A stretch of 49,053 nt of DNA from an uncultured bacterium (lineage in GTDB: Bacteria > Aquificota > Aquificia > Desulfurobacteriales > Desulfurobacteriaceae). Location: NCBI GenBank assembly GCA_964545225.1, contig CAZJFY010000001.1, forward strand, positions 1 through 49,053, read 5' to 3'. Below, piece after piece: positions 1-49,053 of the stretch (position 1 is its first letter; each line of letters opens with the position of its first letter). The position numbers and the translations under genes were made by a program. Below the pieces are notes generated by a model that saw nothing but the letters and a program-made list of their open reading frames with translations, was not told the DNA's origin and searched no databases.

Positions 1-423
1 TCTATCCTAGGAGGAAGGAAAACATTCGTTAATCTTGTAAAACCTTCTCTTACTACTAAGGTTTCTAACAGAGGTTTTGTTTCTAAAGTTAAAGGTTTCT
101 TTAGCAATATATGGCATACGGTTTCACCTTTTTTACAAACCTACTTACAGTACAAGCTAGCTCAACAGCAGTTAAAATGGCAGGCAAAACTAATGCAAAT
201 GGGAGGTCCTAGCTTTTTAACTACACAACCTCCTTCAACTCCTCCTCCTCCGCCGCCTTCCCCTTCATCTTCATCTTTACCATCATCACCCCCATCTTCT
301 TCCGTTCAATCAGCATTAGTTTCAACCTCATATTCTTCTTCTTTTAGTGATAAAAAATACTTGTTGTTAGGAGGAGGGGTTCTTTTACTCGTATTGCTTT
401 TAACGATGATGCGCAGGGAGTGA
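1..423 (+). CDS. C-terminal part of a tail-anchored membrane protein (5' part lies at the window 3' end or outside the window)
   Basis: Frame 1 is open from nt 1 to TGA 421-423, so the ATG at 193 in the ORF track is internal. Pro/Ser-rich linker, then C-terminal TM 'KKYLLLGGGVLLLVLLLTMM' + RRE. 'GFFSNIWHTV' and 'LQYKLAQQQL' are paralogous to 28582..29193. Confidence 0.75.
   Translation, partial: SILGGRKTFVNLVKPSLTTKVSNRGFVSKVKGFFSNIWHTVSPFLQTYLQYKLAQQQLKWQAKLMQMGGPSFLTTQPPSTPPPPPPSPSSSSLPSSPPSSSVQSALVSTSYSSSFSDKKYLLLGGGVLLLVLLLTMMRRE
220..303 (+). repeat. Pro/Ser-rich low-complexity coding tract
   Basis: 'TTQPPSTPPPPPPSPSSSSLPSSPPSSS'. Confidence 0.8.
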
Positions 424-425
424 AC

Positions 426-1076
426 ATGAGAAAGTTGCTTGTGGTTTCTTCTTTTGCTCTTATAGGATATTTTTTGTATAAGGCTTTTGGCGAATCTAGT
501 TATGCTAGTGTCGGACCAGGAGTAAGGGTTTCTCGTCCTTCGTTAATTGAAAGGATTTTATTAGATTCTTATCCTTTTGATCCTGAAAGATTTATACGCT
601 ACAGATGTATCCGTCCAGTTGATACAGTGCTGCGTAACTTTAGCTCTGGAGCTAGGCGGGTGCTTAGATACAAAAAACTGGCTCAAAGGTGGGGAGATTA
701 CTGGGGTGTTCCTTGGGTCTTAGTGTTAGCTATTATTGGAACCGAGAGCGGTGGCGATCCTTATGTTGATAGGAGAGAAGTCGCTGTTGGTGATGTTAGT
801 AGAGGGCTTATGCAATTATTGCTTAGGACAGCCAGATTCATGGGATATAAAGGTAGCCCCTCCGGGTTGTATGATCCCTCGACAAATATTTACTACGGAA
901 CTAAGTATCTAAGATACCTCTATAACAAATATCACAACTGGTTGGATGTTATAGCAGCTTATAATGCTGGCAAACCAAGGGGAGAGGGAAATGGGTGTTA
1001 CTACAATCAACGGTATGTTAATAAAGTTGTTTCTTGGCTTTATGGGTTTAAGAAAATAATGGGAATAGGAGGTTAA
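426..1076 (+). CDS. Lytic transglycosylase (SLT domain) with N-terminal TM/signal anchor
   Basis: Family-1 SLT motifs 'IIGTESGGDP' (catalytic Glu-Ser), 'SRGLMQLL', 'YYGTKYLRYL', 'AAYNAGKP'. N-terminal hydrophobic 'KLLVVSSFALIGYFLYKAF'. ATG 426 lies 5 nt after GGGAG; the track start GTG 420 is less likely. Confidence 0.9.
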   Translation: MRKLLVVSSFALIGYFLYKAFGESSYASVGPGVRVSRPSLIERILLDSYPFDPERFIRYRCIRPVDTVLRNFSSGARRVLRYKKLAQRWGDYWGVPWVLVLAIIGTESGGDPYVDRREVAVGDVSRGLMQLLLRTARFMGYKGSPSGLYDPSTNIYYGTKYLRYLYNKYHNWLDVIAAYNAGKPRGEGNGCYYNQRYVNKVVSWLYGFKKIMGIGG

Positions 1077-1078
1077 AT

Positions 1079-1648
1079 ATGCTGCCGGTGGTTGCTGCTT
1101 TGGCTTCTGCGGGGTTGAATTTATTAGCTGATGCGGTGAAAGCTAAGGGCAAAAAGATAGTGGAGAAAAAGCTAGGCATCAAGTTACCTGAGAAGCCGGA
1201 AGAGCTTACGCCTGAGAAAGTTGAAGAGCTGCATAGAATTGAGATTGATCACGAAATAGATTTGATGACGATGATAAGAGATTCTATTGAAAGTATTTCG
1301 GATTATAAGAAGTTTGAAGTTGCAGATAGGATTAGTGCTAGGCAGCATGAGGTTGCTCTAGCTACTAGTGGACAAGTCCCTGCTCTATTAAAGTATGTAA
1401 AACCTTTATTAGCTTTATTAATCACATTTCTTTGTGGAGGGTTGGTGTTTATTTTACTATTTGTTGGTGTTCCTCAAAATAAAAAGGAAATTGTTATGTT
1501 TGCTTTAGGCTCTGCTTTATCAATGTGGGGGATGGTAGTTTCGTATTATTTCGGTACATCTGAAAGCTCTTCTTATAAAGATAAAGTTTTTGAACTTCTT
1601 TTAAAAACAACAAAGCAAGAGGGCGAGAATTATGGTTCTAGAGCCTAA
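1079..1648 (+). CDS. Holin-like membrane protein (2-3 TM)
   Basis: GGAGG SD before ATG 1079. N-terminal Ala/Leu-rich segment, charged coiled region, then two TM helices 'KPLLALLITFLCGGLVFILLFVGV' and 'IVMFALGSALSMWGMVVSYYF'. The architecture resembles the 3-TM phage/GTA holin family, and the gene sits directly after the SLT gene. Confidence 0.4.
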   Translation: MLPVVAALASAGLNLLADAVKAKGKKIVEKKLGIKLPEKPEELTPEKVEELHRIEIDHEIDLMTMIRDSIESISDYKKFEVADRISARQHEVALATSGQVPALLKYVKPLLALLITFLCGGLVFILLFVGVPQNKKEIVMFALGSALSMWGMVVSYYFGTSESSSYKDKVFELLLKTTKQEGENYGSRA

Positions 1649-2084
1649 ACTTGTTATGAAGGGCAACAGGTTTTTTATAGAACCTGTTGAAGATGGGTCA
1701 TTGTTTTCTTATGATTACGGCATAGTCGAAAAGATTCTAGAGAAGGTTAAAGAGGTTCTTAGGAACTTTGAGCTTGGTTCTTTTGTTCCTGATTGTAGTT
1801 TATCTTTTAGATTGCTTAAAATTCACGGCAGTCGAGGAGATTTTTTAGTTAAACCTGATGATAGATATAAGCTTTGTATTGTTCCTGTATCTTCAAACAA
1901 AGTTCTTATATTGTCGTTTCCTAGCGATTGTCGCATCTTTTTGGACAGAAAAGAAGGAGTTTTAAATAGAGTTGTTGTTGATGCAGTTAATGGTTTGAAA
2001 GGTAGTGTTTGTGCTGTTGGTTTAGGCAAGTTTACTGAAGATGAGCTTTTGTCTCTTGTTAAGATTATACACGGGGGTAAGTGA
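1632..2084 (+). CDS. Hypothetical protein (150 aa)
   Basis: ORF overlaps both neighbours (17 nt upstream; TGATG downstream). GAGGG lies upstream of the ATG. Confidence 0.65.
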   Translation: MVLEPKLVMKGNRFFIEPVEDGSLFSYDYGIVEKILEKVKEVLRNFELGSFVPDCSLSFRLLKIHGSRGDFLVKPDDRYKLCIVPVSSNKVLILSFPSDCRIFLDRKEGVLNRVVVDAVNGLKGSVCAVGLGKFTEDELLSLVKIIHGGK

Positions 2085-8369: not shown

Positions 8370-8380
8370 CGGGGTTGTGT

Positions 8381-16272: not shown

Positions 16273-17073
16273 ATGATTGAAACAGTTGTGGCTCATGTTA
16301 CAAAAGCAGGATACGATTTAATAGCTAGAAAGTTGGGCGGCGAAATAGAGGAGCTTAGGATAACATCAGTTGCTTTTGGAGGAGGACTTAGCCCTCGCTC
16401 TTTGGCTCCGTATAAGCCTTCAATATACGACACCTCGATTCCTAATGAGCTTTTTAGGGTTGAGGGTGATAAGATTCAAACTTTGTATGATCCTGAAGAT
16501 GGTTTAATGGTTGTAAGGGTAACTGTTGATAGAGAGCTTGCTGGAAATTATTATTTGAATGCTGTTGGTATTTATGCCAACGAAACCACTCTTTTTGCGT
16601 CTAATTCTCTTGCTCTTTTGAAAGTTGATTATGGTTCAGAGCTTGTTTTACATATCAAAATACCTTTTTTGCCCGATACTGCGTATCAGGTAATTGATGT
16701 AACACCCCCCTCTCCAGAGTCGTCGGTTTTTTGCTTAGAGACCTTTAGAGATGTTAGGACTAGTCAGCTTGTACCGGCAGGTTATTCCGGCCTAATTTAC
16801 GAAATTCAACTTTCGCAACCAGCTGTTCACTGTTACTTCACATTAGAGGTGGGGAGTGTTGTTCCTTTGGTAATAGATCATATATCAATATCCCTTGAAA
16901 CTTCGCAGTATGGTAGTGTGGTTCTGTTTAGCGATATTACTTTAGATATTTCAACCAATCCCAAGCTTTCTGTTAAAATTCCTCAGCCCTTCAGGAAGCT
17001 TGAGGTTTATAATAAACCATCTCAATCTGATGTTGTTTTTTCTGTAAATGTTACAGGTGTTAAGCTGAGGTAA
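16273..17073 (+). CDS. Fibre protein with tail-collar fibre (P2 gpH N-terminal, DUF3751-like) domain
   Basis: The N-terminus 'VVAHVTKAGYDLIARKLGGEIEELRITSVAFGGG...IPNELFRV...VRVTVDRELAGNYYLNAVGIYANETTLFA' follows the gpH pattern T-x-AG..L.A...(I)T..A.G.G ... E..R ... V(I)..E..G ... GLY..(G)TL.A. Confidence 0.6.
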   Translation: MIETVVAHVTKAGYDLIARKLGGEIEELRITSVAFGGGLSPRSLAPYKPSIYDTSIPNELFRVEGDKIQTLYDPEDGLMVVRVTVDRELAGNYYLNAVGIYANETTLFASNSLALLKVDYGSELVLHIKIPFLPDTAYQVIDVTPPSPESSVFCLETFRDVRTSQLVPAGYSGLIYEIQLSQPAVHCYFTLEVGSVVPLVIDHISISLETSQYGSVVLFSDITLDISTNPKLSVKIPQPFRKLEVYNKPSQSDVVFSVNVTGVKLR

Positions 17074-18381: not shown

Positions 18382-18636
18382 TTAATCTTTGTCTTTAAAG
18401 GTTGATGCTATCCCAGATATTTTTACCATTTTTGTGTTCTCTTGAACTCTCCTTAGATATTCTTCTGGATCAAATTCGTTTTTGATTTTTTCTTGTTTAA
18501 CGCTAAACATTTTCATACCTATTGCTTTTATCATTTCTAATACACCAAGAAACTCCACTAACCCTTCACAATTATGCGTTACATAAACCCTTCCGCTATC
18601 TGCTATTAGCACTTTGAATTCGTATTGTTTAGCCAT
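18382..18636 (-). CDS. Hypothetical small protein (84 aa) co-transcribed with the MTase
   Basis: GGAGGGG SD lies inside the 3' end of the MTase gene, giving a 31-nt overlap. Confidence 0.6.
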   Translation of the reverse strand: MAKQYEFKVLIADSGRVYVTHNCEGLVEFLGVLEMIKAIGMKMFSVKQEKIKNEFDPEEYLRRVQENTKMVKISGIASTFKDKD

Positions 18637-19436: not shown

Positions 19437-19455
19437 TTCCCCTCCGCTTGCTCTA

Positions 19456-19484
19456 ATTTTACTTAAATAGGGGAGAATAGTCAA
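19456..19484 (-). promoter_or_regulatory. Canonical sigma70-type promoter TTGACT-17 nt-TAAAAT for the MTase operon
   Basis: On the minus strand the -35 TTGACT is at 19484-19479, the spacer is 17 nt and the -10 TAAAAT is at 19461-19456. The SD and ATG 19436 follow immediately. Confidence 0.6.
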
Positions 19485-28571: not shown

Positions 28572-28581
28572 GGGTTAGGCG

Positions 28582-29193: not shown

Positions 29194-29219
29194 ACTTATG
29201 AGTCTTGATGGAGGTGGAT

Positions 29220-29963: not shown

Positions 29964-29964
29964 T
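29959..29964 (+). promoter_or_regulatory. Candidate -10 TATAAT overlapping a stop codon
   Basis: In cTATAAT the TAA at 29961-29963 is the stop of the upstream gene. Lies 23 nt upstream of ATG 29987. No TG extension. Confidence 0.25.
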
Positions 29965-29986
29965 ACCACGACACGGGAGGTGAAGC

Positions 29987-30298
29987 ATGGGTGGAAAATT
30001 TAGAGCTTTGGTGGTTAACGGAAAAGTTTGGAGTAAAAAGACTGGTAATTCTGATCCTCAGACACTGGTAAATTTACTGCAGCCCCAATGTTTTACGCTC
30101 GTTTATGTTCACAAAGACGAAAAGAACCCAACTAAATGGGCGGTAGTTGCACTTTTTGACAGTACTTCCGATGATTGTAAGAAAGTTATTGATGATGTAG
30201 CTAAGAAGCTTGGATACACAGAAGGAATACTTGATCCAAGGTTTGTTAGAAAGTATATAAAGGATAATCCTCTTGTTCGTTTGGCTAGGAGTTTCTAA
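29987..30298 (+). CDS. Hypothetical protein (103 aa)
   Basis: GGGAGGTG SD. Confidence 0.65.
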   Translation: MGGKFRALVVNGKVWSKKTGNSDPQTLVNLLQPQCFTLVYVHKDEKNPTKWAVVALFDSTSDDCKKVIDDVAKKLGYTEGILDPRFVRKYIKDNPLVRLARSF

Positions 30299-30720
30299 TG
30301 CTGTTACCCATTCTAATTGGAGGCGTTGCTGCAGCGGGTTTAGTAGGCGGCTTTTTGTTGGGGCGCAAGCATCCATCTTTTACTCTTGAAGACTGTTTAG
30401 AGCAGTACAAAAAGATGGGGTATACTAATGAGCAGGCTTATCGGATTTGTCTGGAAAAGGCGAGAGCCAGTAGTAGTGGAGATGTTTTAGGCAGCATTCT
30501 TCCTCTTGCTGCTTTAGGGGTGGTAGGGATTTTGGCTTTTAGGTTTATGAGAGATTCAGAGCAAGGTTCTTTTAGGACGATATTGCTTACTCCGAAAATA
30601 GTAAGCTCAGGACAGAGTGTGAATAGTAAAGAACAGGAGATTAAAAATGCTAGTGGTGGAGCAGTGCCTAAGCAAGGAATGCATGAAGGATTACCCTTTA
30701 CACCACACCCAATTAGGTAG
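30298..30720 (+). CDS. Hypothetical 2-TM membrane protein (140 aa)
   Basis: TAATG coupling. TMs 'LLPILIGGVAAAGLVGGFLLG' and 'VLGSILPLAALGVVGILAFRF'. Confidence 0.6.
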   Translation: MLLPILIGGVAAAGLVGGFLLGRKHPSFTLEDCLEQYKKMGYTNEQAYRICLEKARASSSGDVLGSILPLAALGVVGILAFRFMRDSEQGSFRTILLTPKIVSSGQSVNSKEQEIKNASGGAVPKQGMHEGLPFTPHPIR

Positions 30721-31207
30721 CTTTTGGCATGATATTTTTCATCCTGTTGAAACGACAGAGTGGCTTTACTACAAGTGGAGGGATTCAAAAAAGATAGAGA
30801 GAGCATTTGTTTCTGTCTTTGGTAGGCGGCCTACCGATAAGGAAGTTGCTAACATTATAGAGGCTTACATCAGAAATAAAAGCGAGTATGGAGATGTCTT
30901 AAAAAGAAGAGGGTTTGTTCTTGAGCTACAAAAAAGTTTGAATAGGGTTTTGCCGAATAAGATAGCTGAGGATGGTATATTTTATTGGCAGACAGTTGCT
31001 GGTATCATGAAATTTCAGGAATTAAGAGGATTAAAACCGACTGGAATTCTAAACAAAGCTACTTGGCGAGAAATTATAACCCTTGATGTTGGTAGCGATG
31101 CTATTAGAAGATTTTATGAAACCAGGTTTAAAAAGATATCTGTTAAAAAGTTACTTATTGCTGGAATGATTGCTATACTTTTAATAGGTTTTTTAATGAG
31201 GAGGTGA
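30647..31207 (+). CDS. Tail-anchored peptidoglycan-binding (PG_binding_1) protein
   Basis: AGGAG lies 7 nt before the ATG. 'LQKSLNRVLPNKIAEDGIFYWQTVAGIMKFQELRGLKPTGILNKATWREI'. C-terminal TM 'KKLLIAGMIAILLIGFLMRR'. Clear paralog of 36108..36638. The start is uncertain because of a 74-nt overlap with the upstream ORF. Confidence 0.7.
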   Translation: MLVVEQCLSKECMKDYPLHHTQLGSFWHDIFHPVETTEWLYYKWRDSKKIERAFVSVFGRRPTDKEVANIIEAYIRNKSEYGDVLKRRGFVLELQKSLNRVLPNKIAEDGIFYWQTVAGIMKFQELRGLKPTGILNKATWREIITLDVGSDAIRRFYETRFKKISVKKLLIAGMIAILLIGFLMRR

Positions 31208-31210
31208 GCC

Positions 31211-31594
31211 ATGAGCTTCTATGCCGAGATACCAGAACAAGAAGGGCTGTATGAAGAAAATTCTTTGAGTGGAGCAAATGAAGCCACGAAGAGCGAAATT
31301 ACTACTGGTGGAGAAGAAGTTGGGGAATCAAGTATTCCTGAGAAGGTAGAGAAAAAAGATATGGGGAACAAATCTGAAAACAGAAATCCCGATATGTTGC
31401 AAAGCAGAAAGAACTTGATGCCGCATAGATATGCAGCTAGAAGAAAGAAACCTGTTATCAAGGTGGTTAAAACAAAGGAAGAACATTTCGATGCCAATTC
31501 TTTTGTTGCAGGATTAATAGGTGGTATAATTATTTACTGGGGATTAACTAAAATATTTGGTAAGAAAAAACAGGGAGAACAAGGAGAGAGGTAA
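31211..31594 (+). CDS. Tail-anchored small protein (127 aa)
   Basis: GAGGAGGTG SD. Acidic/basic N-terminal part. C-terminal TM 'FVAGLIGGIIIYWGLTKIF' + KKKQ. Confidence 0.65.
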   Translation: MSFYAEIPEQEGLYEENSLSGANEATKSEITTGGEEVGESSIPEKVEKKDMGNKSENRNPDMLQSRKNLMPHRYAARRKKPVIKVVKTKEEHFDANSFVAGLIGGIIIYWGLTKIFGKKKQGEQGER

Positions 31595-31601
31595 GGAAGA
31601 G

Positions 31602-39094: not shown

Positions 39095-39791
39095 ACATTA
39101 TCCTGTTTTCCCTACGGCGCGAAAAGTTCTTGAAATGATTACGCTTTGGCATCATAAGTACTGCCCAATTCTCGTTGACGAAGAGTTCAATAAATGGGTT
39201 GAGTATGTTGCTCCCTATATTGTTACTCCCTTTTTAAAGAGATATACCATCAACAACTTTTCTGACATTACATTTAGTCTTATCTTTTATCCTAATGGAG
39301 TTTTAAACCTTGGAAGATTTTATTTGGGCACTATTAATCTTGATCCTGATATTCTGGACAAATTTTATCAACAGCTTTTGCGCTTTGTTGGGGAGAAGGC
39401 ATATAAGTGGGCGAAGAAAAATGCTTCCATAGCTAAGTTAGTTGGTGTTGGAATGGGAGTTGATGTTGGAGCTGGTGAAAAAAGAGTTTATCTCATGTAC
39501 GAAACCAAATGTCCAGCCATAAAGGGGCTTACAACTGATTGGAGAGGTAACATTATAGAGGATAAGACATATTGTATTGATCACAAAGGTAGGGTTATTT
39601 TGAAAGGGTCAAGAGGAACTCGTTTGCAGGTAAATGTTCAGCTGCATGGCAACAGAGCTGCGAGATATATTGCGAGGATGCCATTGCCCGATCAGGTTAA
39701 GATGGTGGCTCTTCAGATTGTGAATGACGGATACGCCCTTGATACTGTCAGTATTTCTGAGACTCGTGGCGTAGCATTGTATTTTGACTAA
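39039..39791 (+). CDS. Hypothetical protein (250 aa)
   Basis: GGGGAGG lies 9 nt before the ATG. The 56-nt overlap with the upstream ORF makes the start uncertain. Confidence 0.55.
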   Translation: MLVVQEVPKKKKIIKVHNRHYPVFPTARKVLEMITLWHHKYCPILVDEEFNKWVEYVAPYIVTPFLKRYTINNFSDITFSLIFYPNGVLNLGRFYLGTINLDPDILDKFYQQLLRFVGEKAYKWAKKNASIAKLVGVGMGVDVGAGEKRVYLMYETKCPAIKGLTTDWRGNIIEDKTYCIDHKGRVILKGSRGTRLQVNVQLHGNRAARYIARMPLPDQVKMVALQIVNDGYALDTVSISETRGVALYFD

Positions 39792-39810
39792 TGTAAAAGG
39801 AGGAGAAATT

Positions 39811-40266
39811 ATGCAGATAGTAACCGAAAATGGTTTTGGATTTAATGACAACAAGACTGCTGATTTGGATTTAAACAAACCTGATGCTATGAGGCTTCTT
39901 CGAGATATGGCCTTTAACCTGCGCAGAATAGTTTTGTGTCTTGGTGGTGGCCAATGGAAGGGAACGAGAACACTAACGATAGAACCACATAGTTCTGTTC
40001 TTGTTAAGTTTGTTGAAGTTAAAGCGGCTGTTATGGTTCATGTGGTCAATATTACTAACGATAAAATTCTCTTGCTTTATAACGACCAGACTTATGCTCA
40101 CGATGAAAAAGTACTAAAAATGAACTCTTTCCCTTTACATCCTGGAAAGATAAGTAAGGTTTTATTGGAATACAAGGAAGTGCTTTATGCTTACAATCCG
40201 TATGATGAACCCGCTCAAATAAAAGTGGATTTGTATGCTGAAAGAACCTGCGCATTAGATCTGTAG
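39811..40266 (+). CDS. Hypothetical beta-rich protein (151 aa)
   Basis: AAAGGAGGAG SD before ATG 39811 (the track start TTG 39784 is less likely). Confidence 0.65.
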   Translation: MQIVTENGFGFNDNKTADLDLNKPDAMRLLRDMAFNLRRIVLCLGGGQWKGTRTLTIEPHSSVLVKFVEVKAAVMVHVVNITNDKILLLYNDQTYAHDEKVLKMNSFPLHPGKISKVLLEYKEVLYAYNPYDEPAQIKVDLYAERTCALDL

Positions 40267-40268: not shown

Positions 40269-41102
40269 ATGCCGGATATTGATAGCGTGGTCCAGTACTT
40301 TAGTAAAACATATTTACGGAGATTTAAAAGGCTTAAGCCGCTAACAAGAAAAACATACTTTTCGTACATTTCTTCGTTTCTTAGAAGCTTTGGCCCCAAT
40401 TTTAGTGAAGAGAACATAGAAAGATTTTTGCGTGCGCTACCTAAAACTGTTAGGAACAAAGCCTTTTTTGCACTGAAGCACTTTGCTAAGCACAGCGGGC
40501 ACGAGTTTAATCTTACCCTTCATGACTTTCCAGAAGAATTTTGGTATTCTGAGTGGGACAGAGAATACGCGGAGCGTTTTTCAAGAGACGAGATTAAAAG
40601 GTTTTGTGAAGCAATTAAGCGGGGAGAATACAAACGCAAACAGGATGCAGCTGCATTGGTATTAGCTATTGTTTGGGGATTAAGAAAAGTTGAAATGGTT
40701 AACATGATTCCAGAAAAAGATATTGATCTCGCTAATAAGGTCTTTTTAGTCAGAACAGCTAAAAAAGGAAAGAAAAGACTACACTTGATCCCCACCAAAC
40801 TTTTGCCTTACTTTGCATATCTTAAGAAAAAGAAGATCAGATTTACTTATCTTAATAATTACAACAGCTTCTTTACATTGTCCAGCATTGCAGGGGTACC
40901 TATTAAACCTAGAAGAGCTTGGCACGGCTTCCGCCGGGCACTCGTTACAGATCTGTTACAAACTGGAATTCCAGATGTAGAGATTTATGACTTTATGAGG
41001 TGGAGTAGGAGAGAAGTTATCTATAAGTATTATTCACCGGACCCTCTCGAAGTTGATAAGAAAATATTAGAAAAGCATCCTTATCTTCCTTATTTGTTAT
41101 AA
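40269..41102 (+). CDS. int: Tyrosine recombinase / integrase
   Basis: Catalytic signature: Arg I 'VWGLRKVEMVNM', Lys 'RTAKKGKKRLHLIP', 'AWHGFRRALVTDLL' (H-x-x-R), and C-terminal 'WSRREVIYKYY' (Trp/His and nucleophile Tyr). N-terminal SAM-like core-binding region. Confidence 0.85.
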   Translation: MPDIDSVVQYFSKTYLRRFKRLKPLTRKTYFSYISSFLRSFGPNFSEENIERFLRALPKTVRNKAFFALKHFAKHSGHEFNLTLHDFPEEFWYSEWDREYAERFSRDEIKRFCEAIKRGEYKRKQDAAALVLAIVWGLRKVEMVNMIPEKDIDLANKVFLVRTAKKGKKRLHLIPTKLLPYFAYLKKKKIRFTYLNNYNSFFTLSSIAGVPIKPRRAWHGFRRALVTDLLQTGIPDVEIYDFMRWSRREVIYKYYSPDPLEVDKKILEKHPYLPYLL

Positions 41103-41103: not shown

Positions 41104-41131
41104 TTGTTTGAAATTGAAGGAGGAGGGCAGC

Positions 41132-44100
41132 ATGCTTGCAGGAGTTGTCATGAAAGGGGGCAAGGTTTCTTCTTTTCCTGACCTATTACCATCCGGCTTT
41201 AAAACAATAATTGACAGTGTTTTTGGGACAAGGGCTTTAAGGAAGGTTTATTACTTTATCAGTCCTTTTGCTTCTACCCTAGTTGCTTCCGATGGTTCTA
41301 AAACTTATGTAGAAGTTCTTGCCCCCAATCCTAAAGATGCCCTATTTCGCTTAAATGAAGAGATGCGAGCCAATCCTTATGTTGTATGCTATGAAGTGCC
41401 TAGCGATAAGGCATCGGAATTTATTGATCTTATTAAGAAGCAAAAATCCTTGGCTATCAAGCAAGATATTGTTCAATCCATTATAGGCTTGAAGAAGTGC
41501 AAGGCAAGTGATAATCCATTTTCTATTTTTGCTTATGCCCCTAAGTTTTCAAGCCTTTACTTCTGGCAAAATATAGTAAAACACTATTTATGGGATAGAG
41601 GTTTCTTTAGTGCTAGTATTCCTGAGAATGGACACGGTAGAATAACTTTAACAGAAGATGGTATCTTTTCAGGGCTTTATAACCTTGATGAAGTTATTGT
41701 AGGAGGAGTAAGGTTTAAATTGCTTTACATGACTTTCGATTTGAAAGAGGAGGATCTGGCTAAAGTTAAGGAGAGAATTTATGATAACAAGAGAAAGGTT
41801 GATGCACTTAACAGGTCTGTTTTGAGAATAGCGAAACGCGTAGATTGTGAATATGCTATAAAAGATACGGTAATTTTTCCAGCAAGCGATAAATTGATTA
41901 GTAGAATAAGAAAAAAAATTAAATTCTCTCTGCCCATTGAGAAGTATCCTAGTGATAATGAACAGCAACTTCTTGTGACAAGACTTGCTTTAGACATAAC
42001 TGACGCAGATTCTCCTTATGAGGTTGTCATAGACAAGCTGTTAGCTGTGTCAAAGGCGGTAGTGTCTCCACAGGTGCTCTTTTATCTTATCAAGATCTTC
42101 TACATCCTTGATGGTATTATTTCTTTTGTTTCTGTTACTTCGCAGATACTGGAAGAATCTAAGGCAAACGCTTACCTCTCTTCATTTGACAATCTGTCCT
42201 CGTTTCTAAGAGAAGAGGAAAGGAAACTTGAACAAGCGAGAAGTAAACTTATTTCCATTATTTCCTCCGAGGTTGGTGTAGAACCAAAAGAGCTGAAAGG
42301 CGTGCTTAATCCATTTGCATTCAGGATTTTAACCACACAGGCAATAAACGCGATAAGGTCCCTTATTTTTGGCGTCATTGATAGTACTGATAGGCGAAAA
42401 GCTATTGGTGTTTCTAGTAAGATACAGAATACCTATACTTTCATGATTAACGCCTTCTTGCCACTACTTTCTTCTCTGATTGGTGAGAAGAAAAGTTTCA
42501 CTGAGTTTGATCCTTCTGTTTTTGAGAGTGGAGTCAAGGAACTTGTCAGCTTAGTAAAATCTGGAAGCTATAATGATAAGATAAAACACATAACAGATGC
42601 CCTGGTTGATAAATATGAAAATCTCAAAATAGTCAAGAGGGCTAAAGTTGATGAGATTATTGCCAATGCTATTTTCAGGCTAACGGGAATTGCTTCTCCA
42701 TTTGTTTCCTTTGTTGATATACCTGCGCTCTTTGAAGCGTTTAGGATAGGCGAGAGATTTAAAATCACAGACCTAAAGCGGGCAATCGGTGAGGATCTTA
42801 AAAATCTTTCATTCAACTTGGTCGTTTCTCCCCGCGCTAAGAAATACTTCAAAGACGAAAGTACGCAAGAAACTTTTGCACTGTCTTCTTATCTTGTTAA
42901 CGCCGCCTACAAAGGTGTTAGAAGAAAATATGACCTAATAGCTCGTAATGTAGTTGTTCAGGAAAGCGAAATAATCCAGGAATACAAGGAAGCTGCTACC
43001 GAAGCTGGGATAGGGGAACAAGGAAAGGATCTAGCTGAGCTTCTTGCTTTAACAGAGGAATATTCACGCGAATTTGAAGAGCTCACCGAGGATAAACTGC
43101 TTTCTGTTTATAGCATATACAAAAAAGAAGAAGTAAGTCCTGAGAGAAGATATAGATTTGCCAGATTTGGAGGCTCTCTTAAACATCTTGTTGAGTATTA
43201 CTCTCCTTCTGGAGTTGGGTTGGGTGGAGGAGTAGCAGCCAAAGCTAATCCAATACTAGATGTTTTTACCTCTCTTGAAATGCTTAAGAAGGCCATTAAG
43301 GCGGTTACTGACAGGATGTTTGGAAAAGAGGTTGTGGATGAAAGTGAAATTCCTTCTACCTTCTGGGATGAAGTTTTAAAAGAAATATCATTGATGGAGG
43401 GACAGGGTTTAATCACAAGTGATATAAGAGAATTCTTTGAGCTTTTTGTTTATAACATTATACTTTCAACCCTTGATTATGTTGCTTCCTTTTTCTATCG
43501 CGCACAAGCTGTTGAGCCCGAAAGAAAGAGAGCTGAAGTGCTGTATAGATTTGTCGAGCTTCTTCTAGTCTTCGTTGACGAGATTAAAAGATGGATAGCG
43601 GCTTCATTTATTACCGTTTCTAGTGTTAAACCTTTTACGCCGCAGTGGCTCGGCTTTTTAAAACAAAAAGCTTCTAAGCATTTACAACTGAAAAAAGACT
43701 TTGTCAAAATTTACAAATTGATAAATTCTTCAGATTTAACTTCTTTGCGAGGAAGAGTTATAAAGGTAGTGTCAGAGATACTTGACAAAGAAGTTGGTAA
43801 TGTGTTGCTGCGAACCGAACTTCAACATTTGAAGGCCATCACGATAGAGTTAATGGTTATACTTTCTTATCTCAAAGAAAAAGGAAAGACAGAATATACT
43901 AACAGCGAGATCGCGCTTACCATTGCTAAATTCCTAGCTCTTATCGCTGTACTGTCTTTAGTTAAAGCCAATCATACAAAGTCTAATTTTAAACTTGCCA
44001 AAAAAACTGACAAAGGACTGGATTACTATCAGGACGAATATAGGGTGCTTTCTGGCGAAAAGATAGAACAGCAGCTTTATGGTATCTGTAATGACATTGT

Positions 44101-47100
44101 TAAAGGAGCTAGGGTTGATGCTGTTGCTAGATATTTTGATAATGTTCTAAATCAAATCAAACAACTTGTTTCGCTTTGTGATGACGATTCCGTTTGTCTA
44201 GTTTATTCCATTCCTGAGGTAGAAGAGCCAGCATTAATTCCTTTGAAGGAATTTTTTGCTCAACAGGTTCTCGGAGCTAGGATATATGACCCCGCAGTGG
44301 TGGCCTTAAAAGAGATAATTGCCGGTAAGGTTTTAGATTTACTCCCGCTTTACAAAGCTTACTTTGGCCTTTGCGATGTTATTGAAAAAGAGCAGCTTCC
44401 TGTTTCTGAAGTAGTAGCTAAATATCCCGGTATAAGAAAACCCATCGCTGATTTTCTCCGTGAGGAAGTAGTCATTGGCGTTGAAAGAACGCTGTATCAA
44501 CTTGCTGTGTACTTCTTGGTAATAAACGCTTTGGAATCAGCATCGCGCCCGACAGCTTTGATGATACTGAAGCGTATGCTTCTTGAATATGGGGCGACTC
44601 AACCTGATGTTCTATTGAACCTTATCAATGTTAGCGGAATGACTCTAAATACTTATTTTGCGTATAAGATGCCTATTGCCGATAGTGTGGTTGTAAGAAC
44701 GAGATTTGCTAGATTGGAAGCTCTAAAAAGTATGCAACTTCCTATGCTTAAAGGATACTTAATAGGACAATGGAACTTGGTTGAAGATAGCTTACCCTAC
44801 TACGGTGTTCCAATAGCTGGAATCCCAAGCTGGGCTTATGCATTGCCCTTGATGTTGTTCCAGTGCGTTGATTTAATTCCAGAAGAGGCAGTGAAGAAAG
44901 ATGAGCTTATTTCAAAGGTTTTGGAAATAACTAAAGGGGTGCGATCCTCGGATGTTATAGGTATTGTTCGTAAATCCATTCAAGAAGCTGGAGCTGGAGC
45001 ATCTGTTGTAGCTGGCTCTACTTGTTGTAATGTCTTCCGAGCTTTAGAAGAAAACATTGCAAAGGTGAAAAATGTCAGTGAGGTGGTTTCGTTCTTTAAG
45101 ATACCTAGCACGGAGGTTGAAGGCAAGTACTCGTTTTCAATTTTCGATGACGTACCTAGTGTTTTATCTTCCGTCTCACCTACGCTTCTTGATAGAGTTG
45201 GACCCGATATTAACCTTAACAACTTTTATCACAGTGCTAGAAGCTTTGTAGTAATGCAGGCGTTACTTTCCATTTTGATTAATTTGCCTCCTGCGGACGC
45301 TGAAAGGAAGCTGAATACACTGATTAGGAACATTATGAGCGCTAAAAAATTAGGATCGTCAGCTATAGAGGCAGCTAATGCGATTTACAACAGATATTGC
45401 GATCTTTTACTTAACCAATCTGACAACAAACAAAGGCTTGAGCTAGATGCAGAAAGGCTTATTCGTCTCTCGAAGCTTGTCACAACAATTGCTAATAAGA
45501 CATCCATATACAATGTTGTGCTTTTCATTACACTTATTGATTTCCTTGCTTACATAGCCGAGGCTCCTCGATCCTTCCAAGAGTTTAATGGAAGAATTGG
45601 AGTATTGGGTCCGGTTTCTACAGCTGTTATTGAAACCAAGAAGTTTCTTGAAGCTCTCAAATTTATAGGTCTTGACAAAATTGTGACTGATCAGGCTTAC
45701 GGAATAGAAAGAATTGTCAACTTCCTGCAGGAAATAATGTCTTACTATCGTAATACCATACTGGAACACAGCAAAAGCTATTCATCTCTTGTTGCTTCCT
45801 TTGCTACATTCAGAGAGCAGGTCATCAAACCATTTGTTTTAACAACAATTGGTAAGGAAGGCCTTGAATTGATAGCTCTCTTAAAAACGCTATCTCATAT
45901 TTCTGCTTTTGATTTCGTTCTAACCAAGCAGTCACTTGCAGATGTAAGCGAAGCTAGAGATTTACTTGACACAAAAGACAAGATTATTTCTCAACATGTA
46001 TTCTATGCCACCGCGCTGGCCGAAAGGATAATTTCTGTCCACACCATTAAGCTGCTTGCTATGCAATATGAGGATACATTCACTATGCTTGCTAGACGCG
46101 GAAGAAGTGTGTTTTCTGCTGATGGGCGCAATAGCTACTTTGGTAAAATAAGAGACAAAATATTTACCTCTCTTCCTAAAGACAAAGAAATACTAAGAGG
46201 AGAGGATATAACATTTGCCTTAGCTTACCTACTCGCAGCTTTGAAATCTCATGTATTCCAGCCAATTAATGATGCCATTGAAAACATTGGAGGTTCTACA
46301 GTTCAGTCTGTTATAGACAGCTTTAAGCACGCAATCAGAAATTCTATTGAAAAAGAGATCAAGCAAGAGAAAATAAGAAGTTCAGAACTACCACAAGTTT
46401 TGCCGCTTACTTCTAAGATAGTTAAAGACGCCGTTGCGGGGTTAATGTCTTCAACCCCTGCTTCGAGAATCTATGTTCTGTCTTTACTTATTGAACTCGA
46501 AAATAAAGCGCAAGATATACTCAAACAAGTAGCTGCTAAGCTAACGCTTCTTAAAAGTAAGTACCCACAATCCATTCCTGCCCAACTTGTTCGTGAGATT
46601 GTAATAGAAACCATTGTTCAATATGTAGAAGGGCTTGTCAAGGTTTACACGGATGGAATTAAAAACGAAATGCTCTTATCTCTTGTTAGTTATTACAATG
46701 CTATTATAGACACTATGGTTAGAGAAGACGAGATAACAAAAGGACTTGTACAGCTTATTCTTGCCTATACCTTCCTATCTCATGAACCTGCTGCTCTCGA
46801 AGAAGGGATAAAATACTTAAGCAACAATCAAGTAATTTCTACCTTCAAACAGGAGTACGAAAATCTTAGAACAGAAAAAACTAAATACGCAAGCTTCACA
46901 GAAGCATTCTGCTCTACTATTGCTCGTTTCTGTGAATATGAATCTACACTTATTAAAGTGCCTCACCTAGTATTACTCACTTTGCTGATTTCCAACATTG
47001 TTCCTCGTGCATACAGAACGCAAGTTGATTTGAAAGCTGCTAGCTATGGTAACATTTGGTCTGGTGTAATCGGATCAGTGGTATCTATGGCAGTAGCTCG

Positions 47101-47275
47101 AAGAACAATTGAAAGATTTTCCTTTGTTCTCTCTAAGAAAAAAGTGCGGGAAGAAGTATTCGCGGAAGCAGAAGAACAAAGAGCTATTAACTTTATTGCT
47201 CAGCAGCTTTCCGAGTATGTTGTCCCGCAAGAACAGGTCAAGAAGATGAAACAGTTTTCTCCTTTACTGCTTTAG
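41132..47275 (+). CDS. Giant 2,047-aa predominantly helical protein of unknown function
   Basis: Uninterrupted 6.1-kb ORF. ATG 41132 follows AAGGAGGAGGGCA (the track TTG 41108 is less likely). Leu/Lys/Glu/Ile/Ala-rich with no catalytic motif recognised by eye. Confidence 0.85.
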   Translation: MLAGVVMKGGKVSSFPDLLPSGFKTIIDSVFGTRALRKVYYFISPFASTLVASDGSKTYVEVLAPNPKDALFRLNEEMRANPYVVCYEVPSDKASEFIDLIKKQKSLAIKQDIVQSIIGLKKCKASDNPFSIFAYAPKFSSLYFWQNIVKHYLWDRGFFSASIPENGHGRITLTEDGIFSGLYNLDEVIVGGVRFKLLYMTFDLKEEDLAKVKERIYDNKRKVDALNRSVLRIAKRVDCEYAIKDTVIFPASDKLISRIRKKIKFSLPIEKYPSDNEQQLLVTRLALDITDADSPYEVVIDKLLAVSKAVVSPQVLFYLIKIFYILDGIISFVSVTSQILEESKANAYLSSFDNLSSFLREEERKLEQARSKLISIISSEVGVEPKELKGVLNPFAFRILTTQAINAIRSLIFGVIDSTDRRKAIGVSSKIQNTYTFMINAFLPLLSSLIGEKKSFTEFDPSVFESGVKELVSLVKSGSYNDKIKHITDALVDKYENLKIVKRAKVDEIIANAIFRLTGIASPFVSFVDIPALFEAFRIGERFKITDLKRAIGEDLKNLSFNLVVSPRAKKYFKDESTQETFALSSYLVNAAYKGVRRKYDLIARNVVVQESEIIQEYKEAATEAGIGEQGKDLAELLALTEEYSREFEELTEDKLLSVYSIYKKEEVSPERRYRFARFGGSLKHLVEYYSPSGVGLGGGVAAKANPILDVFTSLEMLKKAIKAVTDRMFGKEVVDESEIPSTFWDEVLKEISLMEGQGLITSDIREFFELFVYNIILSTLDYVASFFYRAQAVEPERKRAEVLYRFVELLLVFVDEIKRWIAASFITVSSVKPFTPQWLGFLKQKASKHLQLKKDFVKIYKLINSSDLTSLRGRVIKVVSEILDKEVGNVLLRTELQHLKAITIELMVILSYLKEKGKTEYTNSEIALTIAKFLALIAVLSLVKANHTKSNFKLAKKTDKGLDYYQDEYRVLSGEKIEQQLYGICNDIVKGARVDAVARYFDNVLNQIKQLVSLCDDDSVCLVYSIPEVEEPALIPLKEFFAQQVLGARIYDPAVVALKEIIAGKVLDLLPLYKAYFGLCDVIEKEQLPVSEVVAKYPGIRKPIADFLREEVVIGVERTLYQLAVYFLVINALESASRPTALMILKRMLLEYGATQPDVLLNLINVSGMTLNTYFAYKMPIADSVVVRTRFARLEALKSMQLPMLKGYLIGQWNLVEDSLPYYGVPIAGIPSWAYALPLMLFQCVDLIPEEAVKKDELISKVLEITKGVRSSDVIGIVRKSIQEAGAGASVVAGSTCCNVFRALEENIAKVKNVSEVVSFFKIPSTEVEGKYSFSIFDDVPSVLSSVSPTLLDRVGPDINLNNFYHSARSFVVMQALLSILINLPPADAERKLNTLIRNIMSAKKLGSSAIEAANAIYNRYCDLLLNQSDNKQRLELDAERLIRLSKLVTTIANKTSIYNVVLFITLIDFLAYIAEAPRSFQEFNGRIGVLGPVSTAVIETKKFLEALKFIGLDKIVTDQAYGIERIVNFLQEIMSYYRNTILEHSKSYSSLVASFATFREQVIKPFVLTTIGKEGLELIALLKTLSHISAFDFVLTKQSLADVSEARDLLDTKDKIISQHVFYATALAERIISVHTIKLLAMQYEDTFTMLARRGRSVFSADGRNSYFGKIRDKIFTSLPKDKEILRGEDITFALAYLLAALKSHVFQPINDAIENIGGSTVQSVIDSFKHAIRNSIEKEIKQEKIRSSELPQVLPLTSKIVKDAVAGLMSSTPASRIYVLSLLIELENKAQDILKQVAAKLTLLKSKYPQSIPAQLVREIVIETIVQYVEGLVKVYTDGIKNEMLLSLVSYYNAIIDTMVREDEITKGLVQLILAYTFLSHEPAALEEGIKYLSNNQVISTFKQEYENLRTEKTKYASFTEAFCSTIARFCEYESTLIKVPHLVLLTLLISNIVPRAYRTQVDLKAASYGNIWSGVIGSVVSMAVARRTIERFSFVLSKKKVREEVFAEAEEQRAINFIAQQLSEYVVPQEQVKKMKQFSPLLL

Positions 47276-47364: not shown

Positions 47365-47382
47365 GGAGGTGCAAAATGGCAA
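47365..47382 (+). promoter_or_regulatory. Translation-initiation region GGAGGTGCAAAATGGCAA (copy 1)
   Basis: 18 nt identical to 47962-47979. Confidence 0.8.
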
Positions 47383-47921
47383 CCGCTGTAATCTATGATG
47401 GAGTGGCAGGATTTGATAATGTGGGAGAAACCGCAAAGAATGTCATTAAAGGCGGTGCAATCGGAGCCGCAACAGGACTAGCTACCATTTTCGTAACAAA
47501 CAAAATTCCAGTAATTAACAGGATGAACCCTATTATCAAATCCGTAATTGAGCTCGGTATTGTTATTGGAATCACTGCCCTTGCTAAGGACAAACTAGGA
47601 GAAGAAACAGCAACGGCAATGGGAGTTGGTGGTGCTTCAGTAGTTCTTGGTGCAGCTATAAGCAAGTTACTGGCCAAGAAGTTCCACAGCGCACCACAGG
47701 TGGTACCCGGCAAACATGGCTTTGAAGGATATGGAGATGCTGTAGCTCCTATTATTGAAGAAGTGGATGGATACGGAGACGCTGTAGCTCCTGTTGTTGA
47801 AGAAGTGGACGGATACGGAAATGAAGGTGAACTTGAAGAAGAACCGGTAGAAGTAGATGTTGTTGATGGTTATGGCGAAGTTGAAGATGAAGACGAAGGA
47901 GTCGTTGTAACTGTTGAGTGA
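47376..47921 (+). CDS. Multi-TM membrane protein with acidic repeat tail (181 aa), likely abundant
   Basis: GGGAGGTG SD. Gly/Ala/Ile-rich TM segments ('GGAIGAATGLATIFV', 'VIELGIVIGITALA', 'GVGGASVVLGAAISKLL'). C-terminal tail of 14-aa repeats 'GYGDAVAPxxEEVD'. Confidence 0.75.
   Translation: MATAVIYDGVAGFDNVGETAKNVIKGGAIGAATGLATIFVTNKIPVINRMNPIIKSVIELGIVIGITALAKDKLGEETATAMGVGGASVVLGAAISKLLAKKFHSAPQVVPGKHGFEGYGDAVAPIIEEVDGYGDAVAPVVEEVDGYGNEGELEEEPVEVDVVDGYGEVEDEDEGVVVTVE
47727..47819 (+). repeat. 42-bp tandem repeat (2 full copies plus the start of a third) encoding GYGDAVAP(I/V)(I/V)EEVD
   Basis: 47727-47768 and 47769-47810 differ only at a few third positions and at the Ile/Val codons. Confidence 0.85.
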
Positions 47922-47925
47922 GAAA

Positions 47926-47961: not shown

Positions 47962-47979
47962 GGAGGTGCAAAATGGCAA
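47962..47979 (+). promoter_or_regulatory. Translation-initiation region GGAGGTGCAAAATGGCAA (copy 2)
   Basis: 18 nt identical to 47365-47382. Confidence 0.8.
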
Positions 47980-48548
47980 AGGTAAAAGTAAGGCTTCCAA
48001 GCGGAAAGGTTAAAGAAGTTCAAATCTCAGATCTCAGACCTTACTCTTGGTATGATGCTATTCAAATCAAAGCAGACTTGAAGTCAAACAACTATGTACT
48101 CTTTAAGAAGACCGGTAGCCCGCTCATTCTTTCTAACATGAAGACCCCTTCTTCTATTCCAAACGGCTTCCAGTTTGAATTACAAGCTGTTAGGATTTCC
48201 TATGTCGGAGTTGCCAGCGCTGATGACCTCAACAAACTCATTCATAATGCTGTCTTGATTTACAGAAAGGGTGGTTCTGATGAAATCTTTGTCAAGCCGT
48301 TGTGGGAATTCACAACCGGTGGTGGTGTTTGGACACCAAAAGCCGATGTTGATGTACCCTCTTTCGGTTTGCCAACGGTAACCGCAGTAAGCAAGCTTCC
48401 GTTCTCTATCTTCATCGATGGTGGAGATGTTATGGAATGGATTATAGCTGTTGACTTCCAGTTCCCGCCAACGGATGGCAAGTATCTCAGCCAAGACATA
48501 ACGCTTCAAGTTGTTCTTGATGGTGTTCTAAAGAAACCTGCTCTTTAA
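47973..48548 (+). CDS. Beta-rich 191-aa protein, candidate major virion protein
   Basis: Perfect AGGAGGTG SD with the same 18-nt initiation region as the preceding gene. Immediately followed by the strongest intrinsic terminator in the window. Confidence 0.7.
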   Translation: MAKVKVRLPSGKVKEVQISDLRPYSWYDAIQIKADLKSNNYVLFKKTGSPLILSNMKTPSSIPNGFQFELQAVRISYVGVASADDLNKLIHNAVLIYRKGGSDEIFVKPLWEFTTGGGVWTPKADVDVPSFGLPTVTAVSKLPFSIFIDGGDVMEWIIAVDFQFPPTDGKYLSQDITLQVVLDGVLKKPAL

Positions 48549-48567
48549 TTCTTGTTTGGTTTATATC

Positions 48568-48604
48568 AGCCCGCTCTCCACTCACTATGGAGGGCGGGCT
48601 TTTT
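48568..48604 (+). terminator. Rho-independent terminator
   Basis: 12-bp GC-rich stem AGCCCGCTCTCC / GGAGGGCGGGCT (one G-U pair), 9-nt loop, then a TTTTT run. Begins 20 nt after the stop of 47973..48548. Confidence 0.85.
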
Positions 48605-48673
48605 AATTATGAGTAAGGCTAATTAGAAGTTTTATTTTTTGCTCAAAGGTTTCTAAATACTCTTTTTTTTGCG

Positions 48674-48708
48674 TTTGTTAATAATCCAAGACGCGTTTTT
48701 GTTATAAT
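48674..48708 (+). promoter_or_regulatory. Tandem promoter-like duplication: GCGTTTGTTAATAAT then GCGTTTTTGTTATAAT (exact TTTGTTATAAT at 48698-48708)
   Basis: The exact 11-mer lies 31 nt upstream of ATG 48739. A near-copy lies 22 nt upstream of it. Confidence 0.55.
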
Positions 48709-48738
48709 ACTCATAAAGACGAGTAAGGGAGGAAAGCG

Positions 48739-49053
48739 ATGCTTGTTATCGAAGGGCCCCCTCGCGAAGAAGGTTACGGATTCTTCAAAGGAGTGATTAA
48801 AAAGGTTTTTAAGGCAGTTAACAAAGTAAGTCCAGTCCTCACAATAGGTAGTTCATTCCTAACTGGGGGACTTACTACTGGTTTTCTAGCTAAACAAGCT
48901 GGAGCGGCTGCAGCAAAAACTGCCATCAAATCCAGTATCTCCCATAAGCCAACAATTATCACTAAACCTAGTATACCTCATAAGCCAATAATTACTGCTC
49001 CACCTCATAAACCTTCCACACCTCATAAGCTAATAGTTAGTCCACCTCATAAA
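48739..49053 (+). CDS. N-terminal part of a tail-anchored membrane protein (3' truncated by the window end, continues at nt 1 if circular)
   Basis: AAGGGAGG SD. ATG 48739 lies 31 nt after the TTTGTTATAAT promoter. Open for exactly 105 codons to the window end. 'GYGFFKGVIKKVFKAV' is paralogous to 28582..29193. 'PHKP' repeats. Confidence 0.7.
   Translation, partial: MLVIEGPPREEGYGFFKGVIKKVFKAVNKVSPVLTIGSSFLTGGLTTGFLAKQAGAAAAKTAIKSSISHKPTIITKPSIPHKPIITAPPHKPSTPHKLIVSPPHK
48940..49053 (+). repeat. Degenerate PHKP-type octapeptide repeats (coding)
   Basis: 'SHKPTIITKPSIPHKPIITAPPHKPSTPHKLIVSPPHK'. The DNA unit cctcataa(g/a)cc recurs. Confidence 0.7.

Follow-up and report, generated by a model that had tools for sequence, protein, structure and literature searches.

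The stretch of DNA analyzed here (the window; 49,053 nt, the full length of contig CAZJFY010000001.1) is, with near certainty, a fragment of a larger genome of ~84.4 kb, of which it makes up ~58%, with ~35 kb lying outside it. The explanation that accounts best for the two parts taken together, and that is held with about even confidence, is that this genome belongs to a non-tailed membrane virus of anaerobic, thermophilic Desulfurobacteriaceae of deep-sea vents and that the window is its late arm. The element is probably a virus rather than a plasmid, and the small jelly-roll protein encoded at 47973-48548 may well be its capsid protein.

Extent and completeness of the genome

An exact-protein look-up identifies the window (1-49053) with an entire metagenome contig (ENA ERZ23491583, FORT21-1 scaffold_83), and its coordinates are the ends of a contig, not of an element. 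Genes of the window are also found on an 84,187-bp JGI contig (Ga0454710_000020) and on a 64,885-bp hydrothermal-vent ENA contig (k127_94423), and over its final 11,081 nt the window agrees with both of these longer contigs, with 0 mismatches. Walking outward through overlapping loci generates a composite of exactly 84,187 bp (84,366 bp when a slightly longer sister contig is included).

The 3' end of the window falls within a gene for a PHKP-repeat protein, and three independent contigs end within 3 bp of that point, the repeat being the likely cause of the assembly break. The copy number of this repeat (~24-nt unit, window 48900-49053) varies among strains, which accordingly encode proteins of 307 or 321 aa. 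It is one of three tandem repeats that code in frame; the others are a 42-nt unit at 47727-47819, which encodes an acidic DGYGDAVAPIIEEV repeat, and a 15-nt unit at 28966-29018, which encodes a Q-rich stretch.

The initial annotation of the window had described a self-contained 49-kb integrative element with neither a P-loop protein nor a replication gene and fully dependent on its host. Nothing inside the window contradicts such an element, but the genome runs on for ~35 kb on identical longer contigs, with a helicase, a primase, SNF2 ATPases, nucleases and a sigma factor, and the contig ends inside an open reading frame (ORF), so that this reading is scarcely credible. The window having been cut short, the missing P-loop and replication genes are an artefact of truncation. 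(The initial annotation had itself considered that the window might be only a piece of a larger prophage; that it is a piece of a larger genome is what the longer contigs show.) A contig break in a repeat gene can thus produce a false signal of this kind.

The ~84.4-kb genome is essentially complete, and is probably a circular or circularly permuted double-stranded DNA. The evidence comes from a relative, Ga0256838_1000074 (77,415 bp, 76% identical), which starts near its UvrD gene, ends ~0.9 kb downstream of its jelly-roll gene, and has a 97-bp overlap of its two ends, located inside its 336-aa repeat gene (the homologue of the PHKP-repeat gene). An independent 77,905-bp assembly spans the same junction with different break points. 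The overlap and the bridging assembly together specify a circular or permuted genome of ~77 kb, and its closure at that size makes any large unseen segment in the 84.4-kb genome unlikely. Neither the window nor the composite has direct or inverted terminal repeats. Three independent assemblies stop exactly at window position 1, and two stop at an identical base at the far end of the composite; the genes at both composite ends read inward, and there is no terminal repeat or overlap there. These shared exact ends could mark a hard-to-assemble junction or origin region, or they could be real termini.

Packaging, capsid and replication functions

Hallmark genes were sought with Pfam and PHROGs on all ORFs of the window; in the other arm, Pfam was applied to the first ~9 kb, precomputed Pfam annotations were used for the rest, and PHROGs was applied to the unannotated ORFs. 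Across the 84.4-kb composite these searches yield no terminase, portal, HK97 or double-jelly-roll capsid protein, or FtsK/A32 ATPase, and no tube, sheath, baseplate or tail families. In this respect what had been noted for the window (no terminase, portal, packaging ATPase or capsid hallmark) extends to the near-complete genome. For the HK97 capsid protein and the portal there is likewise no match by profile hidden Markov model (HMM) or to PDB sequences (fold prediction covered one ORF, 47973-48548), and five large proteins without a family have no phmmer match in the PDB. The only P-loop proteins of the composite are a UvrD and two SNF2 ATPases, which are of helicase/translocase types; no small P-loop protein (FtsK/HerA, A32-like) is found anywhere in it. 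Nor does Pfam match any ATPase of the VirB4 or VirD4 type, any relaxase or any ParA-type partition protein, and there are no further P-loop proteins; a conjugative element was rejected on the lack of type IV secretion ATPases.

Within the window, a regular-expression scan for the Walker A motif ([GA]x4GK[ST]) gives 0 matches in the 53 listed proteins, in agreement with the earlier scan by eye. Six-frame translation gives two (at ~168 and 35799), neither of them in a listed ORF and one containing a stop codon. The window proteins have seven GK[ST] tripeptides, none of them in an NTPase-like context. Since ~1.4 chance matches are expected in 16,013 aa (by the estimate made in this analysis), the lack of Walker A matches is not significant by itself; it is the absence of P-loop domains that counts. 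The premise from which the initial annotation argued, that tailed and PRD1-like phages need a P-loop packaging ATPase, is incomplete, in that icosahedral membrane viruses that dispense with a packaging ATPase (SPV1 and FLiP) are known (PMC8812541).

No DNA polymerase was found in the composite, and the element therefore depends on that of its host. To this extent the proposed dependence on host replication stands; it is not full dependence, as the element encodes its own helicase and primase.

The jelly-roll protein

No gene of the lineage is better conserved than that at 47973-48548, with 76%, 56-58% and 37% identity in progressively distant relatives (the helicases have 32-54%). Exhaustive profile searching assembles its family into 38 representative clusters, nearly all of them stand-alone proteins of ~170-240 aa (the distant members P0062 and P0058 are on contigs of <2 kb). 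The family has no match in Pfam or among PDB sequences, and its profile, run against all ~105 ORFs with hmmsearch and hhalign, detects no paralogue, second copy or tandem jelly-roll. The candidates for a double-jelly-roll capsid protein of the PRD1 type would be those at 31557-34868.

AlphaFold2 modeling with 10 sequences yields a beta-sandwich (pLDDT 72.7) with Foldseek matches that are mostly viral jelly-roll capsid proteins. With 41 sequences the model improves to pLDDT 88.5 and pTM 0.81, and the beta-sandwich is seen to have eight main strands. The predicted structure is that of a jelly-roll. The top PDB match of the better model is a virion chain of SPV1 (6oj0_A; E=7.9e-4, TM 0.49/0.52, ~10% identity; the chain would be either VP4 or VP10), and uncharacterised proteins of a spindle-shaped virus are also among the structural matches. 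The shell of SPV1 is made of the single-jelly-roll proteins VP4 and VP10, and the virion has an internal membrane and a nucleoprotein core (PMC8459092). High conservation, a stand-alone length of ~190 aa and a strong terminator constitute a profile that is typical of a major capsid protein, and together with the modeled fold they make a capsid role for this protein somewhat probable.

Two other genes of the window are retained in relatives. The adjoining membrane protein gene (47376-47921) is a conserved neighbor, at 56-75% identity, and the gene at 39784-40266, the second core gene of the lineage, has homologues that reach as far as the most distant relative, L025 (ENA ERZ27262648 k141_219211).

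Host and lineage

The host is likely to be a member of the Desulfurobacteriaceae, and is probably Desulfurobacterium. That it is a bacterium is indicated by the viral sigma-70 factor, the peptidoglycan enzymes (SLT, M15, PG_binding), the Shine-Dalgarno-like cores (upstream of 60% of the genes against a background of 12%) and the NrdD match; all of these except the Shine-Dalgarno-like cores were the grounds for rejecting an archaeal host. A viral fragment of NrdD is 71% identical to a separate 177-aa C-terminal NrdD ORF in a Desulfurobacterium metagenome-assembled genome (MAG), where it lies in chromosomal context, beside NrdG, a 514-aa N-terminal part of NrdD, and TrpB. The virus and this MAG are also close in base composition (38.6% and 37.4% GC, respectively) and in tetranucleotide usage (r=0.90). 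From the SLT protein, the transglutaminase-like protease and the M15 peptidase one would expect the envelope to be diderm and to contain peptidoglycan.

The most distant relative, L025, is a 51,395-bp contig with 37% jelly-roll identity and 24.7% GC, and with no Pfam match in 19 neighboring genes; other relatives have 40-46% GC. The range of GC content, from 24.7% to 46%, implies that the lineage spans hosts of very different base composition.

Searches of sequence collections recover no relative among GenBank phages (megablast with the halves of the window; tblastn with the jelly-roll and 2055-aa proteins), only chance Streptomyces matches among plasmids, and nothing in IMG/VR with SNF2 or jelly-roll alignment patterns, the jelly-roll alignment A2 being too divergent for pattern scanning. 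The absence from IMG/VR is consistent with hallmark-based detection missing the lineage, and shows where such pipelines have a blind spot. No copy was found in the 185,579 representative genomes of GTDB with patterns from the jelly-roll protein, and no contig seen carries host flanks. Of the proposal that the element is temperate, the recombinase stands: its catalytic residues (the Arg of GLRKVE, HGFRR, W and Y) can be read from the sequence, and it occupies the same position in relatives. The integrated copy is what these GTDB patterns fail to provide. The recombinase could equally serve to resolve genome dimers instead of integrating the genome. The further proposal of a new viral lineage with non-canonical packaging is partly sustained, by the lack of a recognizable packaging or capsid hallmark, and partly not, its replication-gene and P-loop half being the artefact already described.

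Gene content of the window

The window (38.8% GC) comprises 53 ORFs packed tightly together, of which the + strand carries 49, much as first described; tRNA and Rfam scans find no tRNA genes and no Rfam families in it. Pfam, applied to all 53 ORFs, recovers each of the enzyme and wall-binding families that had been named by eye: SLT, N6_N4_Mtase, PG_binding_1 (in three proteins), Transglut_core and Phage_integrase. It adds one sub-threshold tail-collar match. PHROGs finds lysis, methyltransferase and integrase families along with families of unknown function, and nothing structural. Positions and supporting evidence are collected in the table.

Table. Features of the window, in order of position
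Feature	Position	Strand	Evidence
Late arm (virion, entry, lysis) and recombinase	1..49053	+	identical sequence on longer contigs
Small membrane proteins flanking SLT	193-423 and 1079-1648	+	transmembrane scan
SLT lytic transglycosylase	420..1076	+	Pfam SLT E=1.3e-19; PHROGs lytic tail, transglycosylase, endolysin families
Four of five paralogous 540-621-aa proteins with common C-terminal domain of ~85-120 aa	2081..10153	+	BLASTP
Unrelated 347-aa ORF between paralogs	5693-6736	+	
Weak tail-collar-fibre N-domain	16273..17073	+	PF12571 21.2 bits against cut-off of 23; phrog_4618 E=6e-4
N6/N4 DNA methyltransferase	18606..19484	-	PF01555 E=1e-44; phrog_67 E=2.8e-58
Fifth paralog	25020..26597	+	shared C-terminal domain
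Cluster of small, mostly tail-anchored membrane proteins	27978..31594	+	Pfam, transmembrane scan, C-termini read from translations
PG_binding_1 proteins in this cluster	27978-28571 and 30647-31207	+	Pfam
Tail-anchored PG_binding_1 protein	36108-36638	+	Pfam E=4.9e-9
Transglutaminase-like cysteine protease (Transglut_core)	36566-37207	+	Pfam E=4.9e-7
Second lineage-core gene, small beta-rich 160-aa protein	39784..40266	+	38-59% identity to homologues
Tyrosine recombinase	40269..41102	+	PF00589 E=7.5e-9; phrog_1
2055-aa protein, four hydrophobic segments, adjoins recombinase	41108..47275	+	no homologue in any library
Membrane protein with acidic 14-aa tandem repeat, adjoins jelly-roll gene	47376..47921	+	transmembrane scan
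191-aa single-jelly-roll protein, candidate major capsid protein	47973..48548	+	conservation, AlphaFold2 model, Foldseek
Strong intrinsic terminator, 20 nt after jelly-roll gene	48568..48600	+	13-bp stem, 9 G-C pairs, then T run
5' part of 307-aa PHKP-repeat tail-anchored protein, cut by contig end	48739..49053	+	full ORF on longer contig

The five large paralogs (2081-3823, 3828-5693, 6747-8369, 8375-10153 and 25020-26597) match one another in BLASTP with E down to 4e-12. The domain that they share had been labeled Ig-like, a label that is unconfirmed: it matches only phrog_20698 and phrog_22549, both of unknown function. The five are candidate host-recognition or vertex proteins. Two tail-fibre collar N-domains had also been proposed, of which the one at 16273-17073 is retained as a weak match; the other, at 17081-18373, is not supported, as it has no Pfam match and no BLASTP similarity to the first. 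Three lone - strand ORFs (11959-12291, 18382-18636 and 35408-36040), which have no matches and interrupt the unidirectional late block, could be morons or regulators.

The genome encodes ~10 small tail-anchored proteins, three of them with PG_binding_1, and several small, very basic proteins. Seven ORFs of the window (193-423, 27978-28571, 28582-29193, 30647-31207, 31211-31594, 36108-36638 and 37686-37943) and four beyond it end in similar anchors of the form (K/D)-x-(W/Y)-x-x-I-G-G-G-I-L-L (in many, K-(W/Y)-x-x-I-G-G-G-I-L-L), after which come basic residues. The tail-anchored proteins match no known C-terminal sorting-signal family in NCBIfam, and their common anchor could be a virus-specific membrane-targeting signal. 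The 2055-aa protein appears helical by eye from its sequence alone. Its positional homologues keep its length (2047-2208 aa) but barely its sequence (23% identity over a short stretch), and it might determine size, act as a scaffold or be a tape measure.

The other arm

The ~35-kb arm beyond the window lies mostly on the opposite strand. For replication and transcription it encodes, besides a sigma factor, a superfamily 1 (SF1) UvrD-like helicase (motif GPAGTGKT), a primase of the DnaG type (654 aa, with a DnaG zinc ribbon), two SNF2 ATPases, and nucleases, namely a VRR_NUC protein resembling Holliday-junction resolvases and one that is SNase-like. An STIV_B116-like protein, an M15 peptidoglycan peptidase and three or four further methyltransferases are also encoded there. 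(A 228-aa SNF2 fragment used as query gives matches at 33-37% identity, its own full-length protein not being among them.) With the methyltransferase of the window there are ~5 predicted DNA methyltransferases per genome, of N6_N4 types, an N6_Mtase/Eco57I/TaqI_C type and a small N6 type; the set is a heavy investment in restriction evasion.

A 286-aa sigma-70-region-2 protein is encoded at composite 66447-67307 (-). Over 44% of its length it is ~31% identical to cellular RpoD, and it has a faint counterpart in the most distant relative (L025 2730-3563). The presence of a viral sigma factor suggests virus-directed late transcription. The viral NrdD fragment (172 aa, composite 65896-66414, -) comprises the C-terminal glycyl-radical and Zn-ribbon part of the protein; it looks like a host-derived gene, and could replace an oxygen- or damage-sensitive radical subunit. 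Genes for AdoMet decarboxylase and spermidine synthase, also counted as host-derived metabolic genes, lie within ~0.4 kb of each other, with one small ORF between them, at composite 79671-81460 (+). This polyamine pair is plausibly linked to nucleic-acid stabilization in a thermophile or to DNA condensation.

Interpretation and alternatives

The preferred explanation, a non-tailed membrane virus, takes the following form. The virion would contain a membrane and have a shell built from the ~190-aa jelly-roll protein, as in Portogloboviridae (SPV1). Basic nucleoproteins would condense the DNA, and membrane and shell would wrap it; with no pumping of DNA into a procapsid, the lack of a packaging ATPase would be accounted for. 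The diderm envelope would be the target, on entry or exit, of the tail-anchored proteins, the SLT protein and the transglutaminase-like protease, and the five large paralogs and the fibre-like proteins would recognize the host. The analysis shows that the window is a fragment, what the genome encodes, that a relative's genome closes, the modeled jelly-roll fold and the tie to the host; the capsid role, the membrane and the ATPase-less assembly are inferred, and an SPV1-like assembly without ATPase is, taken by itself, a doubtful proposition. It is suggested, with the same reserve and quite tentatively, that the lineage may be the first bacterial portoglobovirus-like group, with 77-85-kb circular genomes, a single-jelly-roll shell, an internal membrane, nucleoprotein DNA and no motor, or else with an SNF2/SF1 motor recruited for DNA translocation, and that either way it would constitute a new high-rank taxon of Aquificota viruses. 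This would be a more interesting object than an ordinary prophage, yet one that a single weak structural link ties to known virions.

A number of observations weigh against this explanation. The SPV1 chain is the only PDB match below E=1e-3, and the likeness is weak and at the level of fold; the match lists in which it stands also contain non-capsid jelly-rolls (PHM, the furin P-domain, Ena fibres); fibres, enzymes and lectins, too, can have this fold; and the structure model covers one protein only. No counterpart has been established for a VP10-like penton, a VP1-like nucleoprotein or the membrane, the genome is ~4x the size of that of SPV1, and the host is bacterial, not archaeal. The sub-threshold tail-collar match and the 2055-aa protein of conserved, tape-measure-like length fit a tailed particle. 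Circularity is seen in the relative only, the junction of the two ends of the 84.4-kb genome is unassembled, and an 84,614-bp NCBI contig exceeds the composite by at least 248 bp, a stretch that is missing here. Finally, the putative virus is known here from its genome sequence.

Apart from the self-contained 49-kb element already dealt with, three alternatives have to be weighed. A virus of the same host might have some other non-tailed form (enveloped, pleomorphic, or a filamentous nucleoprotein), with the jelly-roll protein as a spike, receptor-binding or accessory protein. The many tail-anchored and several small, very basic proteins would suit such a particle, as would the lack of a packaging ATPase and the occurrence of non-capsid and spindle-shaped-virus proteins among the jelly-roll matches. 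It is nonetheless judged unlikely: the jelly-roll gene, most conserved, stand-alone at ~190 aa and closed by a strong terminator, has the profile of a major capsid gene, and its top solved neighbor is a shell protein. That the genome belongs to no virus at all, but to a large plasmid or integrative element of Desulfurobacteriaceae with a 50-kb block of surface and envelope proteins, would accord with the lack of a viral hallmark in any profile library, with the failure to find the lineage in IMG/VR, and with the presence of a recombinase, helicase, primase, SNF2 and several methyltransferases, all of which are common on plasmids. Against this, there is no ParA, Rep or type IV secretion/coupling ATPase, the P-loop proteins are helicases only, and no plasmid relative was found, whereas two peptidoglycan hydrolases, a sigma factor of its own and host-derived metabolic genes are present, the structural neighbors of the jelly-roll protein are viral capsid proteins, and the large beta-rich proteins are encoded in a single long block, all in one direction, much like the late operon of a phage. 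A non-viral element is accordingly considered rather improbable.

An extremely divergent tailed phage (Caudoviricetes), with HK97 capsid protein, portal and terminase beyond the reach of HMMs and the 2055-aa protein as tape measure, is a distinctly improbable alternative, for a terminase large subunit needs a P-loop and this genome offers only UvrD and two SNF2 proteins. The terminase is, moreover, normally the easiest phage gene to find and is recognizable in the pyroviruses of Aquificae (PMC7689252), but neither it nor a portal, capsid, tube, sheath or baseplate protein is matched here by Pfam or PHROGs. What a tailed phage would explain is the sub-threshold tail-collar match in two libraries, the hydrophobic segments, constant length and divergent sequence of the 2055-aa protein, and the SLT and endolysin-type genes; the only described viruses of Aquificota, too, are tailed (PMC7689252).

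Comparison with known viruses

Aquificota have yielded no virus isolate, and the only described genomes of their viruses, those of the pyroviruses (in 2020 the only ones known), are of tailed-phage relatives (PMC7689252). Like the lineage described here, the pyroviruses (TOSV and relatives) are uncultivated, have circular genomes with two opposed gene blocks, and encode a lytic transglycosylase and a methylase (PMC7689252), in the same host phylum. They differ in genome size (37-42 kb), in having a recognizable terminase, portal, capsid protein and PolA (PMC7689252), and in being tailed-phage relatives from terrestrial springs rather than from deep-sea vents. The present lineage would thus form a second, unrelated and much larger group of Aquificota viruses beside them.

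The double-jelly-roll phages (Tectiviridae, Corticoviridae, FLiP) have membrane virions and many small membrane proteins, and PRD1 P3 is among the weak fold matches of the jelly-roll protein. PRD1 also carries a virion-borne lytic transglycosylase, P7. The genome considered here is 5-8x larger than theirs, with no double jelly-roll by HMM and no A32-like ATPase; FLiP also lacks a packaging ATPase (PMC8812541).

The Helvetiavirae (Thermus phages P23-77 and IN93, and the SH1-like archaeal viruses) are icosahedral with an internal membrane and with small, vertical single-jelly-roll capsid proteins. Some of them infect thermophilic bacteria, and the SH1 capsid protein is among the weaker fold matches obtained here. 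They encode an FtsK/HerA-type ATPase and two adjacent capsid genes, in contrast with the one established jelly-roll and absent ATPase of the present lineage. Their genomes are also much smaller (~17-30 kb).

A further comparison is with the Portogloboviridae (SPV1, SPV2), of which no bacterial counterpart was found in a literature search. A single jelly-roll of ~180-190 aa is common to the SPV1 shell protein 6oj0_A and the protein of this lineage, and the two also have in common a circular double-stranded DNA genome, no packaging ATPase (PMC8812541), many small ORFs of membrane and DNA-binding types, and a thermophilic setting. In SPV1 an internal membrane surrounds a core of VP1 and A-form DNA; the lineage described here has ~10 tail-anchored proteins and small basic proteins by prediction. 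The differences are considerable. SPV1 has a genome of ~20 kb, as against ~77-85 kb here; its host is the archaeon Saccharolobus, where the present lineage has a sigma-70 factor, peptidoglycan enzymes and a Desulfurobacterium-like NrdD; it is without the helicase and primase encoded here (PMC8459092); and there is no sequence similarity, the structural match being at TM ~0.5 and counterparts of VP1 and VP10 not being established. The lineage, which probably belongs with the viruses that combine a jelly-roll capsid protein with the lack of a packaging ATPase, differs from the known ones in host domain and in genome size (its own architecture being putative).

If the jelly-roll protein does form the shell, then ATPase-less packaging and SPV1-like capsids would exist in deep-branching thermophilic bacteria and would not be an archaeal curiosity; an architecture known only from two viruses of Sulfolobales would occur in Bacteria as well, and with a genome four times as large. 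It would also bear directly on published scenarios that derive the Helvetiavirae from portoglobovirus-like ancestors (PMC8812541). Desulfurobacterium is a culturable host genus, which makes the idea testable.

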